A stretch of 64,000 nucleotides of DNA, taken from positions 160,001-224,000 of the forward strand of contig JAWBYA010000002.1 in the NCBI GenBank assembly GCA_038867615.1, read 5' to 3'. Below, piece after piece: positions 29,375 through 44,685 of this stretch (position 1 is its first letter; every line of letters starts with the position of its first letter). The notes below the pieces were generated by a model, which was not told the origin of the DNA, searched no databases, and was given only the letters and a program-made list of their open reading frames with translations. The DNA comes from Sulfolobales archaeon. Its GTDB lineage: Archaea > Thermoproteota > Thermoprotei_A > Sulfolobales > AG1. A program made the translations under genes and the position numbers.

Positions 29375-30994
29375 CTACCCCTTTCTTCTAGCTATTATCA
29401 GGATCGTTGTTATTAGTGCGAGGACAGCTATGACCAGGGCTGCAACGATTAATGGGCTCTGGATGCTTTGAGCCCCGCTCTGTGCTGCTACCTGGCTCTG
29501 CTGTGCTTGGCTTATGGGTTGCTCGACTAGCTGTAGCTTGCTCTTTGGTACAACCACTATTTCTCCAGCCATGTATGGGTGTATGGAGCATAGGTAGCTA
29601 TAGAGGTCTGAGTTCTCTGTGACTATTGGGACGAAGTTCTTGTATGTCTGGAGCTGGGCTCCACCGATTCTATATACTCCTGCTTTTGTAAATGTGTATG
29701 ACCAGCTTCCGCCATGTTTTAGGAGAGGTGATTTGATCGTCTCGTTACCCATGCGTATAACCACGTCGTGAAGCCCTATAAGCTCTCCCCCTGCTCCTGG
29801 CAGGCTTATTATATCCTCATTGATCCATACTACGGTTGTGCCCTCTGGTATAACAAGTCTCTTTGGATAGTACGAATTACCTATTATCCTTACATATACA
29901 GTCCCCTCACCATATACTGGCGTATCTATCTCAGGAGATCCTAGGCCGAATGGGTCTATGATCCTCACGGGCTTCTCAGGTAGTGGTAGTTTGGGGCCTT
30001 GGGCATCCACAACGTCTGTTCTATTAGCATCCTTGCTAGCCTTAAGCAAGCCTATAGCTCCCCTCACGGGCTGGTTAAACACGTGAGTCACTATAGCGTA
30101 GGGTCCTTCTTCAGGAACCCTGAACTCGACAACCCATGAATCGCTAGGTCCTGCGAGTACCGTCTGGCCGCCGTATATTACGTTCAATGGATGCCCCTGG
30201 TAGTATGCGAAGTCCCATACTATGCCTACTAGATGGAATGTCGATACTAGGTTGGGTCCTACGTTTAGGAAGTATATCCTTACATAGTCTCCTGGTCTAG
30301 CCATTATCGGGTTGCTGAGATATCTCGCTATGTACCCGTTGAATAGAACGTATAGGGGCTTTGCTGTTACGAAGTCAGCACCGCTTCCATAGATCTCGTG
30401 CTGGATTAAATAGATCTCTATATCGGGCTTTCTACCAAGGATCTCTTCCAGCTTGTATTTATAGATCTTAGGCTTGACAACGATCATCCCATACTGGCCT
30501 GACATCGTGTGCACAAAGATCCCCTGACCCCCTGGGGCACAGTGATACATATAAACCCCGGGATAGCTCGCATTGAATATAATCCTCTTGGTAGCTCCAG
30601 GGGCTACGTTACCTATAAATGGCGATGTCGCCCTATAGATCGCATGCACCGAGAGACCGTGGGCCACATCATCCTTGTTAACAACAATAAGCTCAACAAT
30701 ATCCCCCTCCTCAACAACTATAGTAGGCCCTGGCACAGTACCATTTATTGTGAAGGTGTCGAGCACAACCCCATCGCCTATAACAACCTTAGTTCTGTAG
30801 AGCTCTATAACAAACCTCTTGTTAGGCTCGGTACCAGGTGGTACAAAGCTTGTTGGAGGCAGCTCATAACCAGGCTGGGAATCGCTTCTAAAAGCCTCTA
30901 TAGTGGGGCTCACTATCGATAGTACTATCAGTGATACCAATAGTGCTATAAAGCCTATCCAATTCCTACATATCATACCAATCCCCAGATCCAC
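29375..30994 (-). CDS. nirK: Copper-containing nitrite reductase-like multicopper protein with C-terminal cupredoxin and membrane anchor
   Basis: NGTVPGPTI, HGLSVH, YMYHC...HTMSGQYG, NVGPNLVSTFHLVG, YAIVTH; extra domain HDVV...YLCSIHPYM; N-terminal signal and C-terminal TM. Confidence 0.8.
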   Translation of the reverse strand: MDLGIGMICRNWIGFIALLVSLIVLSIVSPTIEAFRSDSQPGYELPPTSFVPPGTEPNKRFVIELYRTKVVIGDGVVLDTFTINGTVPGPTIVVEEGDIVELIVVNKDDVAHGLSVHAIYRATSPFIGNVAPGATKRIIFNASYPGVYMYHCAPGGQGIFVHTMSGQYGMIVVKPKIYKYKLEEILGRKPDIEIYLIQHEIYGSGADFVTAKPLYVLFNGYIARYLSNPIMARPGDYVRIYFLNVGPNLVSTFHLVGIVWDFAYYQGHPLNVIYGGQTVLAGPSDSWVVEFRVPEEGPYAIVTHVFNQPVRGAIGLLKASKDANRTDVVDAQGPKLPLPEKPVRIIDPFGLGSPEIDTPVYGEGTVYVRIIGNSYYPKRLVIPEGTTVVWINEDIISLPGAGGELIGLHDVVIRMGNETIKSPLLKHGGSWSYTFTKAGVYRIGGAQLQTYKNFVPIVTENSDLYSYLCSIHPYMAGEIVVVPKSKLQLVEQPISQAQQSQVAAQSGAQSIQSPLIVAALVIAVLALITTILIIARRKG

Positions 30995-31548
30995 GGCCAG
31001 TCAAAAAGCATATAGTGGTAACCTAACCTTTTAGTCTACATCTAATATTTACAGAATAGCTTTGTATAGACAATCATATATGGATCCTGTTATGTTTTAT
31101 CCAACTAAATATATCTCGATATGAATCTATATAACATAACCTCATTACAAGATATATCATCTCGCAGATCTGAGGAAACCAATCACCGCATTATTATTCT
31201 ATATAATGTCGTTTGGCATACTCCCCAGATCTCTGATAATGTGATCTATGAGAGGAAAATAATAAGAGCAACCCTAAGGCTTGTTACAATATACCCATGG
31301 ATCTTGAAGCAACGACCAGGGATCACCATGATAGGACTTGGAGGATTGCTGGGAGAGCTGTTAATACGGGACTTGGAGACCTGTTGAGAAGGGCTGCGAT
31401 GGATATAGCTTATCTTGATGATGCTAGAGGTTCCGAGAGATTTTCTAGCTGAGGATAGCATAATCATAGAACTAGAGCTCACGACCTCTGGAGATATGGT
31501 TGATCAGGACCTCGTGATAGGTGTTGGTAGGTATTATGACTGGCAGAT

Positions 31549-31720
31549 CCGTTTGTCCTCGGATGTTCGTTCCAATCACTCTATCTTTATTCATGGTCAT
31601 ATCCAGGGACTTCAACCTCGCCCACAGGATCTCCAACCCTGTAGTGTCGTGAGTAATCATCGATCCAAACGGCACACGACTCCCATCTAGGGCTTGTGTT
31701 GAGAGACACGCACCGGGAAC
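31549..31720 (-). ncRNA. Putative omega-RNA scaffold (orphan copy)
   Basis: Homologous to the tnpB 3' end; stems GTCCCTGGAT/ATCCGAGGAC and ACAGGG/TCCTGT; CCGTTTG complementary to the terminal CAAACGG. Confidence 0.6.
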
Positions 31721-31834
31721 AATCTATCTCAAAGCTAAAGCCTATAAATACCCCTAGGCATCTATGGCGAGGCAGCCCTCGGGCATGCCGTCCCCAAAAC
31801 CTATCAACCTCCATGTATATCAAAGAAAACAGCC
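31549..31834 (-). mobile_element. Non-autonomous mini-element of the tnpB element at 43164-44655 (left end + promoter + omega-RNA, no tnpB)
   Basis: Shares with the 43-44 kb element the GGCTGTTT left end, the second left repeat containing TTTATA, TGCCGTTTGG, CCTGTGGGCGAGGTTGAAGTCCCTGGATAT and the GGACAAACGG right end. Confidence 0.85.
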
Positions 31835-31883
31835 CATGTATAGGGGGTTGGTTCTAAAACCTTCTCCAGTCTCTCTAGGATTG

Positions 31884-32324
31884 CTAGTGGGTGTGCATAC
31901 TCCCTTGGGCTGTCTCTTTTATCGGGACTGTTATCCTTATATCGCCGCTTCTCTGGAAGTGGAGTATTAATACTATCTCCTTTATACTATCCATTATCTC
32001 TGTATAGTTCCCCATGATCATGATGTGGTATCCTCCAGGCTCTAGCCTAGCCTCTGATCTGCCTGGTATGCATATAGAATCCACAGGCTCCATCCTGGCT
32101 ACACCGCTGCTCATAACAGTTCTATGGATCTCTGCCTTCATCTTCATGGGGCTTATCATTTCAACACCTACCAAGCAGTCCTGCCCAAACCCGTGGTTAT
32201 GGATCATCATATAGACACCTATTACCCTTGGCGTTATTTTCCCATACTGGTCGTGGATCTCTATGGATGGTGCTGCAAAATATGGGATTGCTAGATATAG
32301 AGACGCAACTGCTATTACCACCAC
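31884..32324 (-). CDS. PCuAC-family copper chaperone
   Basis: GVYMMIHN, AEIHRT...ARM, LEPGGYHIMIM: H-x10-M...HxM pattern. Confidence 0.9.
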   Translation of the reverse strand: MVVIAVASLYLAIPYFAAPSIEIHDQYGKITPRVIGVYMMIHNHGFGQDCLVGVEMISPMKMKAEIHRTVMSSGVARMEPVDSICIPGRSEARLEPGGYHIMIMGNYTEIMDSIKEIVLILHFQRSGDIRITVPIKETAQGSMHTH

Positions 32325-32443
32325 AACCGCTGCTAGGATTAATAGCTCTCGCTTCTCTATAATAAACCACCATGCATAAGCCTGCTGGGAATTATATAAG
32401 TGTTCTTAAAGATCTGCATATAGTTATATAGATCCTTATAGAG

Positions 32444-32821
32444 CTACCTATTAGCAGCCTCAGCCTCCTCACCAAACACGGCTTCGTAGATATATAGTAC
32501 TGCCACGGCTACTCCTCCTATGAGGGCTATTGTCAGCATGATCTCCGATGCCATGCCAGCAACCCCAACCCTGTTTATCCCTAGCAATGAGGCACAGAAT
32601 GCTATGAAATCCGACAAGACCCCCCTATCTATCCCCAGCCTTATCATTATCGAGACGAGTATTGGGACTCCTACTAGGAAGAAGCTCAGCAGCGCTATGA
32701 ATGGTAACGGTAGTGTTTTCCTACCCATGCTCCACCTAGAATCCATATCCCTCTGGGGTAGATATGCTTGGCATCTATAACGGTTATAAGCCTCTATTTC
32801 TATAAGCCCTTGGGGTCTCAT
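32444..32821 (-). CDS. Hypothetical membrane protein (start likely at MDS or MGR)
   Basis: Two to three hydrophobic helices. Confidence 0.5.
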   Translation of the reverse strand: MRPQGLIEIEAYNRYRCQAYLPQRDMDSRWSMGRKTLPLPFIALLSFFLVGVPILVSIMIRLGIDRGVLSDFIAFCASLLGINRVGVAGMASEIMLTIALIGGVAVAVLYIYEAVFGEEAEAANR

Positions 32822-33044
32822 GACTCTATCAAGGATCAGGCTCTATGTGCTGGGTCTAGCGCTAACAGCCCTCATAATGTCGGCTGTTTTTGGAGCCATA
32901 TTCATCTTTATCCACGAGATCAACATAACCCTCATAATAGCAGCTGTTGCTGTGATCCTTGTTGTTTGGGGTGTTAATACATACTATCTATTAAGGATCA
33001 TCGATGAAGAGGAGAGGGTTGGGGCTAGGGCTGGAGAGGACTAG
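32820..33044 (+). CDS. Small two-TM protein
   Basis: Hydrophobic hairpin; abuts the next gene. Confidence 0.6.
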   Translation: MTLSRIRLYVLGLALTALIMSAVFGAIFIFIHEINITLIIAAVAVILVVWGVNTYYLLRIIDEEERVGARAGED

Positions 33045-33046
33045 CC

Positions 33047-33616
33047 TTGCCAAGGCTATTCGTCGCTGTCGAGATCGAGGATAGCTCTACGCTCTCAAGG
33101 ATTATTGGGGTTAGGGATAGGATCTCTGGTTTGGGTGTTGATCTAAAGCCTGTTGAGGATGAAAACATACACCTCACACTAAGGTTTCTCGGGGATGTCG
33201 AGGATTCACTGATCCCGAGTATATATAGGGCTGTTGACGAGCTCTCATCCTTCGGATCTTTTGTAATGAGGGTAAGGGGCATAGGGGCTTTTCCAAGTAC
33301 TAAGAATCCCAGGGTTGTCTGGGTTGGTGTTGCTGATGGGAGCGAGATTCTCAGGTCTATGAGGAGCGCTCTTGACAGGGGTCTCAGAGGGCTTAGGGTC
33401 CATGAGGATGAGCATGCCTTTCACCCACACATAACAATAGCCAGAGTTAGGGGTAGGTCTAACCTCGATATCCTCTCGAGATATATCGAGGAGAACATAG
33501 ATCTAGAGTTTGGAGTATCCCCGGTCACCAAGGTTGTTCTCAAGAAGAGCACACTAACCCCAAGGGGACCTATATATTCCGATCTCAGGGTAGTGGTTCT
33601 CTCGGGCCCTAGGTGA
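33047..33616 (+). CDS. thpR: RNA 2',3'-cyclic phosphodiesterase (2H phosphoesterase)
   Basis: RLFVAV, HLTLRFLG, HPHITIAR, STLTPRGPIY. Confidence 0.93.
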   Translation: MPRLFVAVEIEDSSTLSRIIGVRDRISGLGVDLKPVEDENIHLTLRFLGDVEDSLIPSIYRAVDELSSFGSFVMRVRGIGAFPSTKNPRVVWVGVADGSEILRSMRSALDRGLRGLRVHEDEHAFHPHITIARVRGRSNLDILSRYIEENIDLEFGVSPVTKVVLKKSTLTPRGPIYSDLRVVVLSGPR

Positions 33617-42437: not shown

Positions 42438-42730
42438 TAAACCATCATCTCAACATCACTTAAAAATCTCTATAACACACCTCAACATATATCCTTTTCG
42501 CCCAATTAAAGATCCCGGTGTAGGGAAGCATTACAAAAATATGGTAGCACTAAGAAACAAGGACTGAGGTGCTTCTTATCGATACTCATAGGAAAAATTC
42601 ATAAGCTTTGATCGATATTGTTTCTGGTGATGATTTGGTCTCCGTAGTGACTCTGGATGGCGATAGGAGCAAAGCTCTAAGCCATCCAGGGGATGATCTC
42701 CCAGTAGATAGGAGCCTCCTTCTGCTACGC

Positions 42731-43089
42731 TCAAGCGCACATAAACCTATGGGATCGATCTACTATAGAATTGAAATACCTAGCACCTAAAGCTAAGATC
42801 ATGTTGCTGAGCCTGGCTTCAAGTTCTCTGAGATCTTCTTTAGTAGCCATGATACTCCTCAAGCTGGAGAGCTCTTTTTCGAAACCCTTTTGGTAACAAT
42901 TGTATCCTTTATATCGGTGATCTCTGTTCTTAGGGCTTCTATGTCTTTCTTTGTAGCGAGCTCTCTCCATGGTGTTAGTTTTGTTATTGCTTCATATATG
43001 ATCTCTGGGTGTCTAAGGATGACTCTCTCTATCAGATCGATCCTCCTCTCCAGGATCCTCTCTATAGCCTCTTCTAGTCCCTCTACCAA
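42731..43089 (-). pseudogene. Frameshifted, truncated ATKED-repeat coiled-coil protein (paREP7/DUF3782-like)
   Basis: LTPWRELATKKDI in one frame continues as MATKEDLRELEARL...ALGAR in another; the C-terminal nuclease domain expected after ALGAR is not seen. Confidence 0.65.
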
Positions 43090-43110: not shown

Positions 43111-44513
43111 TCACGGAGGATTATATCTAGGACTGATCTTTATAACATCTATGGTAACAGGCACCGTTTGTCCCTGGATATTCGTTGATATTGTTTGATG
43201 TTCTTTTATATCCAGGGACTTCAACCTCGCCCACAGGGATCTAGGTATCCCTGTGAGGTCATGGGCTGCCGTCGAGCCAAACGGCACGTGGCTCCCATCT
43301 AGGATTAGCCCTGGGTGGCTTGGAGCGCTGCTCCCATCACCACCCAGGGCTTTGAGTAACAGGTTATAGCATGCGGCGACATCTCTATGCCACTTCTCCT
43401 TGCCAGCAGAGCATACACCTATTCTTGAGCCATTATATTTTATTTCTGATCTATGTATTGGGCATTGTTTCGATGTATTCCTAGGATTAATATAGATTAC
43501 TGGTACACCATGCTCTTTAGCCTTCTCCTCAATGGCTCTCTGGATGCCTTTGAATGCTGCTTGGAAGATCCTGTGTCTTAATTGCTCATCTTTGATCCTA
43601 GAGATCATGTTCTCAGCGGGCTTATCGCCGAGATCCTCGAGGACAACTCCATATCCTTGTTTTAATACCTCTCTAACTATTATGTTCGCTATCTTCCACC
43701 TAGTATCCTCTTTCCTCTCTTCCTCCCTAAGCTTCCTCAAGATCTTCCTCTTAGCATGGCATTTAACATTGCAGATCTTATCGTATTTCTTCTGAATCCT
43801 CTTCCTCCTATAATAATAGCCGAGAGTGATTCTCTCGATATTTGTTTCTAGTAGATATGCTTTTCCGTCTAAAAGCACTGCTACGTTGTTCTCATTAACA
43901 TCCACAGCTATATAGTCATTAGGCTTGTATAGCCTAACATTCTTTCTAAAAATGAGATATATGATCAATCTTTTTTCTTTTCTATCAAGCTTTATCTTTG
44001 CCTCGGATGCTAGCTTCCAGCCAGAGTTGATATACCTATAGAACTGCTTGTGAGGAACTAGATCTACCTTGATCAATCCTCTATGCGTTGATATAGCTAT
44101 CCTTGTTAAGCCCTCAAGCCTCCATAGGTGGTCGTCAAGCCATATCGAGATCCTCCTAACACTTGGATACTCCTTATTCGTTGATCCCTCCTTCTTCAAT
44201 TTTAGAAAACTCTTAACCTTGTAGATGCATCCTGACAAGCCGTGTGAACATAGTGCGATGGTAAATGTGGGTAGAGGTTACGCATCTCCCTATATTTTAA
44301 AGCCCTAAGCTTTATGAAAGATGTTATCCCCTCCCTAGCAGAATATATCACTAGCTGTTCAACCATATTCCTATACATACCCTCAAGCTCAATGAAAATC
44401 CTGAATAGCTTTTTAGAAATCCTCTCAGACCTAACAATAACAGTCCTCGTAACAATCGAAGCATCCTCATCATTAGCAGCAAGCGCTAGAGGTGCTTGTG
44501 GGAAGCAGCCCAC
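43111..44513 (-). pseudogene. tnpB: TnpB RNA-guided nuclease split by a 1-nt frameshift near 44215
   Basis: Upstream part LPSHYVHTACQDASTR; downstream part VKSFLK...IAVDVNEN, VLEDL, TSKQCPIH, HRDVAACYNL; RuvC D-E-D intact. Confidence 0.88.
43164..43350 (-). ncRNA. Putative omega-RNA overlapping the tnpB 3' end
   Basis: Stems GCCCTGGGTGG/CCACCCAGGGC, CACAGGGAT/ATCCCTGTG and GTCCCTGGATAT/ATATCCAGGGAC; CCGTTTG/CAAACGG pseudoknot potential. Confidence 0.7.
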
Positions 44514-44534
44514 CAGGATATGTTTGGTGAGGAC

Positions 44535-44550
44535 CTTATAAACTTTTCCC
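44535..44550 (-). promoter_or_regulatory. BRE/TATA promoter of tnpB inside the inner left-end repeat
   Basis: GGGAAAAGTTTATAAGG about 25 nt upstream of the GTG at 44513 (leaderless geometry); TTTATA is conserved in the mini-element at 31743-31748. Confidence 0.6.
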
Positions 44551-44685
44551 TATAGCATCGATAGAGAAACAGCCCATTAGATATACTGCCTCTAATACCC
44601 ACAAAAATTTCAAAAACCTATCAATTACCCCTATGGATATCAAAAAGAAACAGCCTACAGGTATTGTGGAAAGTATATTAGGGGT

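Follow-up and report, generated by a model that had tools for sequence, protein, structure and literature searches.

The window analysed here is a stretch of 64,000 nucleotides (G000:C2:160001-224000) from the 2.22-Mb genome of a Sulfolobales archaeon (G000, 28 contigs), which the sequencing runs containing it mark as a hot-spring metagenome bin. Within it, positions 31549-31835 of the minus strand are a discrete mobile insertion of 287 bp without a protein gene: no ORF of at least 80 aa lies on the strand of the element, and the sole overlapping ORF (31415-31690, plus strand) has no Pfam match. A PCuAC copper-chaperone gene on the same strand lies upstream of this mini-element and ends ~49 nt before it. 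A first-pass annotation of the sequence had drawn its span as 31549..31834; the right border agrees with ours, but the left border falls one base short of the actual start at 31835. The order of parts given there, an outer left repeat, an inner left repeat with TTTATA (31743-31748) and then the scaffold, is the order that we find, each part being located as described:

31835, minus strand: left end, beginning GGGCTGTTTTC..
31800..31835, minus strand: outer left end GGGCTGTTTTCTTTGATATACATGGAGGTTGATAGG, reading GGGCTGTTTTCTTTGATAT..TTGATAGG, homologous to the outer left end of a full tnpB element (44655-44617)
31741..31767, minus strand: remnant of the inner left end, a purine-rich stretch running into GGGGTATTTATAGG and the TATA box
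31748-31743, minus strand: TATA box TTTATA
31696..31714, minus strand: degraded 5' hairpin (family consensus GUGUGGG/CCCACAC), placed by alignment and by comparison with the full element
31695-31683, minus strand: deletion junction, AAGCC joined to CTAGATGG
31549..31690, minus strand: core omega-RNA-like scaffold of 142 nt, placed by its match to the covariance model R1 (defined below) and by covariation
31682-31677 with 31667-31662, minus strand: scaffold stem GAGUCG/UGGAUC
31646-31621, minus strand: scaffold hairpin
31609-31601 with 31564-31556, minus strand: long-range scaffold stem
31672-31666, minus strand: loop CCGUUUG, opposite the tail CAAACGG at 31555-31549
31549, minus strand: right end, finishing ..GGACAAACGG
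31548-31530, minus strand: right flank, the putative guide ATCTGCCAGTCATAATACC

The initial G's of the outer left end belong to the G-run target of the insertion, and comparison with the full element derives the 5' hairpin from the 5' end of the tnpB transcript. Archaeal promoters follow a spacing rule from TATA box to transcription start, and the position of the TATA box would place the start near 31720. A search of the window against Rfam returned no match at the gathering score and two chance-level matches (E 1.4 and 2.8).

Relation to full tnpB elements

A full tnpB element of the same family lies ~12 kb from the mini-element, with the following parts:

43164..44655, minus strand: full tnpB element
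44655-44617, minus strand: outer left end
44575-44548, minus strand: inner left end
44543-44534, minus strand: TATA box
44513..44202 and 44238..43111, minus strand: tnpB, in two frames owing to a 1-nt deletion near 44220
43302-43164, minus strand: omega-RNA scaffold (R1 128.4 bits, this copy being in the training set)

The ORF at 43111-44238 (minus strand) encodes a Cas12f1-like TNB domain (Pfam PF07282, E 2.3e-12). The mini-element had been described as sharing the architecture of this element minus tnpB, and the comparison bears the description out: the outer and inner left ends, the TATA box and the terminal region are common to both, and BLAST aligns 31599-31691 with 43208-43303 (79% over 96 bp, E 2.4e-16). 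The mini-element profile also recovers the left end of the full element (window 44655-44494; E 1.1e-11), and the ends of both the window tnpB element and a tnpB element on contig C1, left as well as right, are matched by the same profile. Because left ends, TATA box and terminal region are shared, sequence comparison identifies the mini-element as an internal-deletion derivative of a tnpB element.

By tblastn, a tnpB body adjoins three of the 48 scaffolds found in the genome; the gene is intact in one case, frameshifted in another (the window copy) and in the third split at contig ends, between the starts of contigs C7 and C6. Relative to the C1 copy, the window tnpB lacks 1 nt near 44220, a loss that breaks the reading frame, and, without a shift of frame, another 6 nt; the 1-nt loss may reflect a genuine pseudogene or a fault in the assembly. 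The notion that this neighbouring gene, 12 kb off, might supply TnpB fares poorly, since the 1-nt frameshift that breaks its frame makes it an unlikely source. An intact cognate gene, which the first reading presupposed, is present elsewhere in the genome at C1:754-2175 as an open frame of 474 codons. Its product has a TNB domain (PF07282, E 5.5e-11) and keeps D205, E293 and D378, which we take to be the RuvC catalytic triad and which are invariant in 18/18 aligned clade members (row L146, in the wrong frame, was left out of this alignment). The only solved relative of the protein by sequence is Cas12f1 (PDB 9i8y), and the match is weak (E 2.3e-4). R1 matches C1:783-927, overlapping the 3' end of the gene.

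Copies of the element and structure of the scaffold RNA

A search of the 2.22-Mb genome with the mini-element profile marks 72 places, 19 of which are full length from left to right end (287-351 bp). The proposal that the mini-element belongs to a family of cassettes is upheld by the count from R1, which finds not a single copy but 48 scaffolds, 45 of them tnpB-less and 3 tnpB-joined. In the alignment of the 19 full-length copies, similarity starts at GGGCTG (GGGCT in 16/19) and stops at CAAACGG, with unrelated flanks and sharp borders. A long and a short form, the latter including the window copy, are one hairpin (CCCUGGGUGG..CCAUCCGGGG) apart, and this hairpin lies within the tnpB coding region in the parent; some other copies begin only at the inner left end. 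The promoter element said to be retained is conserved, the ATTTA of the TATA box being invariant in 19/19 full-length copies and found also in the aligned copies; conservation per 20-nt block is nearly uniform along the element (0.77-0.93), so the promoter is not strongly outstanding. The window copy is among the more decayed ones, with 34/41 pairs formed, 82% identity to the consensus and rank 25 of 48 by R1 score, and clearly degraded copies include L022 and L032-L034. Full-length copies are abundant in two further genomes, G002 and G003, and scaffold matches occur in 15 of the 31 genomes searched, G000 counted in.

The mini-elements of this family (family A, to tell it from a sister family, B) keep company with other elements. 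A 3.6-kb segment holding A-type, B-type and third-family mini-elements (L173; G000 C7:65200-68800) is 100% identical in G002:C44 and G003:C15, in chromosomal surroundings that are only 85-95% identical between the three genomes. The pattern suggests that a mobile element was exchanged recently, or that bins share contigs, and the complete identity meant that no empty site was obtained there. At L166 (G003:C16:64425-64620), orthologous to a short-left-end A copy (L024, G000 C3:36789-36985), stands an element with a similar left end and another interior and right end, which is a fourth family with the common left end. The genome also holds a second, unrelated tnpB-only element (L075, G000 C1:11137-12700), which encodes a TnpB of 457 aa and has the right end ..CCCGAACCCC; its own miniatures of ~350 bp (e.g., L165:361-713) occur in dozens of copies in G000, G002 and G003.

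The scaffold structure was drawn by per-segment consensus folds, RNAalifold on the gappy 280-column alignment having yielded only 12 pairs. In the within-genome alignment (33 scaffolds, 57-pair consensus structure) 88.2% of cells pair, and two-sided changes occur at 19/57 pairs, against 10.8 +/- 2.6 in shuffles (0/500 reach 19) and 9-13 with slid partners; this covariation is modest, and the structure was drawn from the same sequences. The covariance model R1 was built from 30 core scaffolds of G000, the window copy included, with 138 positions and 35 pairs, and it scores that copy, a member of its training set, at 121.5 bits over 138/138 positions. The outside test of R1 comprised 79 loci from other genomes that encode relatives of the C1 TnpB at 42-94% identity: 69 matches were found in 68 of the 79 tnpB loci; 68 sit at the 3' end of the ORF, and the remaining one falls on the opposite strand of L088.

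Across the clade, with stem 1 revised, 93.3% of cells pair and two-sided changes are seen at 27/37 pairs, in 343 cells against 101 +/- 7 in shuffles, and the pairs reach a covariation score of 0.382, where slid partners stay at 0.040-0.083; the alignment was fitted to R1 and hence favours the model pairs. The helix GAGCCN/NGGCUC is absent from R1, so that the alignment was not fitted to it; 98.2% of its cells are paired, with two-sided changes at 6/6 pairs. This covarying helix replaced the inner pairing first drawn for stem 1, a GCC/GGC apical hairpin. The check by covariance model that had been suggested for the element thus came out in its favour, the helices covarying above shuffles and slid partners both within the genome and across the clade, and on this comparative evidence we judge that the scaffold is a structured RNA found at the tnpB 3' end throughout this TnpB clade.

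The loop of the revised helix could pair with the last bases before the guide. This CCGUU/AACGG pairing is 98.5% paired and invariant across the clade, and the CCGTTTG/CAAACGG pairing noted earlier in the window copy is present at 7/7 positions. A search for covariation in it gave one two-sided change within the genome, not above shuffles, and none across the clade. A pseudoknot next to the guide is known from published TnpB omega-RNA structures, and the pairing here is compatible with such a pseudoknot, though not proven to be one. Family B provides a natural control, for in these elements, which have no CAAACGG tail, the loop CCGUUUG is no longer conserved. The statement that stems were kept while loops diverged holds for the family and less so for the window copy (34/41 pairs, 82% identity to the consensus). 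For the predicted 172-nt RNA of this copy the folding energy, -48.3 kcal/mol, does not surpass that of shuffles, -48.7 +/- 4.1 kcal/mol (z = 0.09).

Insertion sites, guides and the proposed mechanism

The site of the window copy is vacant in two sister species, represented by G003 and G002. The empty allele reads ..GCAGATCC joined to CCATGTATAGGG.. in G003 (also given as ..GGCAGATCC joined to CCATGTATAGGG..) and ..GGCAGATC joined to CCTATATACAGGG.. in G002. In the orientation of the element, these are CAT-GGGG-ATCTGCC and ATA-GGG-ATCTGCC, respectively, and the occupied allele is CAT-GGG[CTG...AAAC]GG-ATCTGCC. Contigs from metagenome run X9 show both joined forms with letters equal to those of G003 and G002, and hence are no independent evidence. 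Three further sites were read: L004 is empty in G003 (TTTGAA-CCCC-TCTCTAAC); in place of a composite at C2:148361-149009, G003 has 23 nt, the last four of them GGGG, with the guide match following immediately; and L009 is empty in both G002 and G003, with a joint of GTAAC (5 nt absent from the occupied allele) and not of G's. At three of the four sites, then, GGG(G) stands directly 5' of the guide match in the empty allele, where the occupied allele has ..AAACGG. These G-run joints point to insertion into a G run, with no target duplication, and suggest GGG(G) as a candidate TAM. No simple empty alleles were found for the L016 site and the family B sites.

A Y1 (HUH) transposase (PF01797) has no match in G000, G002 and G003, whose completeness of 94, 86 and 94% leaves its absence unproven; among the 14 genomes of the host family, PF01797 matches occur in three (G004, G005, weakly, and G007). 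Despite the lack of a detected Y1, insertion sites differ among G000, G002 and G003, the genomes richest in miniatures.

The right flanks of the mini-elements, their putative guides, differ in 44/44 copies with a right end and are unrelated to one another. A second match (up to 2 mismatches over 18 nt) exists for 14/44 guides and for 28/110 random genomic 18-mers; the guide at C2:82492 has seven extra matches, which are right-end copies of the second tnpB element family adjoining the guide. A search of viral contigs for the window guide found no exact match. The first-pass annotation had gone on to picture a dispersed guide repertoire, and with no excess of off-site matches this is an overstatement: the lack of enrichment fits self-retention (homing), not a targeting library. 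Metatranscriptome run X20, the sole RNA run among 24, was read over 30500-33500 and gives coverage only at 30500-30667.

The best explanation, which we hold to be probable while leaving appreciable room for doubt, is that the mini-element is a non-autonomous MITE or PATE, derived from tnpB, that borrows TnpB for its own retention. It would have arisen by internal deletion of a tnpB-only insertion sequence of the IS200/IS605-IS1341 type, a deletion that would have fused the left end, the tnpB promoter and ~45 nt of leader to the last ~140-215 nt of the element, that is, the omega-RNA scaffold and the right end. The internal TATA box would drive a minus-strand RNA from ~31720 through 31549 into the flank, and TnpB made elsewhere (C1:754-2175) would bind this RNA. 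The complex would be guided to cleave the element's own locus after excision, where the flank would be preceded by GGG(G) and not by ..AAACGG; the form predicted for cleavage at the vacated site is GGGG followed by ATCTGCCAGTC.. Recombination with an occupied copy would then restore the element, and each mini-element would thus borrow TnpB to secure its own retention and spread. Homing would be of use to the element once excision has taken place, and a Y1 that could carry out this step was found in none of G000, G002 and G003, which tells against the reading; the family thereby brings into focus how tnpB-only elements, and the miniatures derived from them, leave their sites in genomes that yield no TnpA.

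Three other readings have to be set beside retention through a borrowed TnpB. Somewhat unlikely, in our view, is that the mini-elements are inert, that is, deletion derivatives which keep the scaffold as right-end transposition DNA or by founder chance and make no functional RNA, the window copy being in decay. The fold of that copy (z = 0.09), its 34/41 pairs, the uniform conservation along the element, the confinement of X20 coverage to 30500-30667, outside the element, and the clear degradation of several copies (L022, L032-L034) are all in keeping with inertness. It is harder to square with the copies within the genome, which keep pairs by two-sided changes above shuffles and slid controls, with conservation that extends more than 140 nt inward from the right end, with the invariant ATTTA of 19/19 full-length copies and with a loop partner of the tail that is unconserved only in the tail-less family B. 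We think it very unlikely that the elements are transcribed for a purpose independent of TnpB, as a mobile promoter or as a small RNA regulating neighbouring DNA, here downstream of the PCuAC gene. The flanks of 44 right-ended copies are unrelated and the conserved part is exactly the TnpB-linked scaffold, which speaks against such a role, even though the promoter is directed outward over the right end into the flank, the copper-chaperone gene lies ~49 nt upstream on the same strand and sense-overlapping transcripts at the 3' ends of tnpB genes of the IS1341 type reportedly entered the literature as functional ncRNAs (PMC4615843).

Runs of G at the two junctions, as well as in the empty sites, would also suit an IS607-type element, moved by a serine recombinase with a GG-dinucleotide crossover. 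That such an element is at hand is extremely improbable: a GG-core crossover would leave one G fewer than the GGGG empty sites show, and the sole resolvase-family gene (C23:6616-7053) has an N-terminal catalytic domain, read as the layout of a resolvase or invertase. Resolvases and invertases, with their N-terminal catalytic domain, differ in protein layout from the IS607 TnpA. Assignment to IS607 was rejected, as no IS607-type tnpA stands beside tnpB and the resolvase-type gene on C23 lies away from it.

Guide-RNA genes without an adjoining effector have reportedly been met before, in the stand-alone omega-RNA loci of OMEGA systems that Altae-Tran and colleagues are said to have described in 2021 as having no adjacent effector and being used in trans; the mini-elements resemble these loci in being guide-RNA genes of this sort. 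The kind of element is itself already described, as orfB-derived MITE-like elements (You et al., 2011) and as omega-RNA-bearing PATEs (Meers et al., 2023), and the idea of TnpB acting in trans is in print. In the available text of a preprint (Meers et al., 2023, PMC10055086), PATEs, the subject also of Dyall-Smith et al. (2011, PMC3119063), are stated to "often encode omega-RNAs", for which TnpB has to be provided in trans. The published model has each guide directed solely at the site that its own element has left, and the lack of off-site enrichment here fits that model. Like PATEs as portrayed in the preprint, the mini-elements have no gene, hold ends in common with a tnpB parent and occur in many copies, with an omega-RNA scaffold that adjoins a flank-derived guide and with TnpB in trans (PMC10055086). 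Unlike PATEs, they reside in a hot-spring Thermoproteota host, have an archaeal TATA promoter fused straight to the scaffold and use a G run as target and candidate TAM, and the three genomes rich in copies (G000, G002 and G003) yielded no Y1 TnpA. Acidianus hospitalis W1 has a MITE-like repeat of 10 copies that at one end corresponds to the orfB downstream end; its describers (You et al., 2011, PMC3119797) proposed an origin in orfB elements and reported the repeat from further crenarchaeal genomes. Compared by description, both are multi-copy and have an end that matches the downstream end of orfB/tnpB (PMC3119797). The work on A. hospitalis predates the omega RNA and, in the text available, shows no mobility, whereas the empty sites here show insertion (PMC3119797).

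The CRISPR-repeat family and wider implications

The window holds one member of the sister family B, with these features:

42566-42776, plus strand: family B mini-element, its left end related to family A
42597-42605, plus strand: TATA-like box
42651-42691, plus strand: 5' scaffold hairpin
42754-42776, plus strand: right end, a copy of the host CRISPR repeat

About a dozen copies (10 full and 1 remnant, L056-L066 on C1, C4, C5 and C7) are present in G000, and orthologous copies in G002 and G003. They share the left end, TATA box and 5' hairpins with family A; their terminal sequence beyond ..CCCACAGG is GTCGATCTACTATAGAATTGAAA, past which the flanking sequences diverge. These right ends agree at 20-24/24 nt with the repeat of the mini-array at C1:487888 (two repeats) and at 17-21/24 nt with that of the 122-repeat array at C1:626893-634752, which is flanked by type I-A genes, Cas1/Cas4/Csa1 and Csx1. 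Within family B, mean column identity is 0.93 in the repeat and 0.79 in the rest of the element. Cas6 (PF01881) has no match in the genome, nor has it one in a Sulfolobus control; TIGR01877 gives two matches at 20.8 bits, below its cut-off of 58.65, and the unnamed ORFs beside the cas genes have no Cas6 family match.

Two other origins of family B were considered and set aside. It is not a deletion derivative of the second tnpB type, as in G002:C65 (L070/L072) that element is nested inside the orthologue of the window B copy. Nor is it a CRISPR leader with its first repeat, as what immediately precedes the leader-end repeats is unlike B in sequence and the mini-element profile has no match at the end of the main array.

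Several loci document how the copies vary. A single locus carries B in G000 (L063, C1:143540-143920), an A-type element with TnpB scaffold and CAAACGG in G003 (L184:2560-2960), and in G002 (L185:2500-2860) no element, only ~190 nt of unrelated sequence. At L061 (G000 C5:93900-94260) a B copy ends ..CTATAGGATTGGATGGAGACAAACGG, where a CRISPR-repeat-like stretch runs into the final bases of an A-type right end, and may be a recombinant or an intermediate of A and B. Relative to two B copies of L159 (1410-1625 and 7638-7857; G000 C1:232909-233124 and 239137-239356), G003:C4 has ~600 and 320 bp more, the missing 320 bp being the middle of a 163-codon membrane-protein frame that is intact in G003, and these two copies look like insertions accompanied by deletions, not like clean insertions. 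With the CCN PAM rule as background, CCT stands 5' of the flank match in one of the two ancestral alleles read (B_239k and B_233k).

It is decidedly doubtful, though conceivable, that the mini-elements are interchangeable guide modules, in which B transcripts, cut by the repeat-processing enzyme, would give flank-specific crRNAs to the type I-A or type III system. Family A would present its flank to TnpB; family B would have swapped the TnpB-binding 3' scaffold for a CRISPR repeat, so placed that the flanking DNA would sit at the position of a spacer. If this is true, the transposon would co-opt host CRISPR-Cas, and not TnpB, to police its own insertion site, as homing or addiction. Mobile elements with a CRISPR repeat include solitary repeat units, virus-borne mini-CRISPR arrays and CRISPR-associated transposons. 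Like mini-CRISPR arrays and CRISPR-associated transposons, B carries a CRISPR repeat that could feed the host Cas machinery; unlike them, its single repeat is the right end of the element, in place of the TnpB scaffold, and the flank replaces the spacer. The literature searched yielded no published description of mini-elements ending in a CRISPR repeat.

If functional, family B would link transposon guide RNAs with host CRISPR immunity, a link that we did not find described. For family A, the genome offers a dense archaeal example of gene-less guide-RNA cassettes, 45 of them against one intact, one frameshifted and one contig-split tnpB. By its record title, "Desulfurococcaceae archaeon AG1" is a cultured relative; its TnpB copies reach 94% identity with the C1 protein in the best segment. 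The empty sites define the borders of the element and suggest a G-run TAM, which makes a direct test of homing by a trans-acting TnpB in a thermophile feasible.
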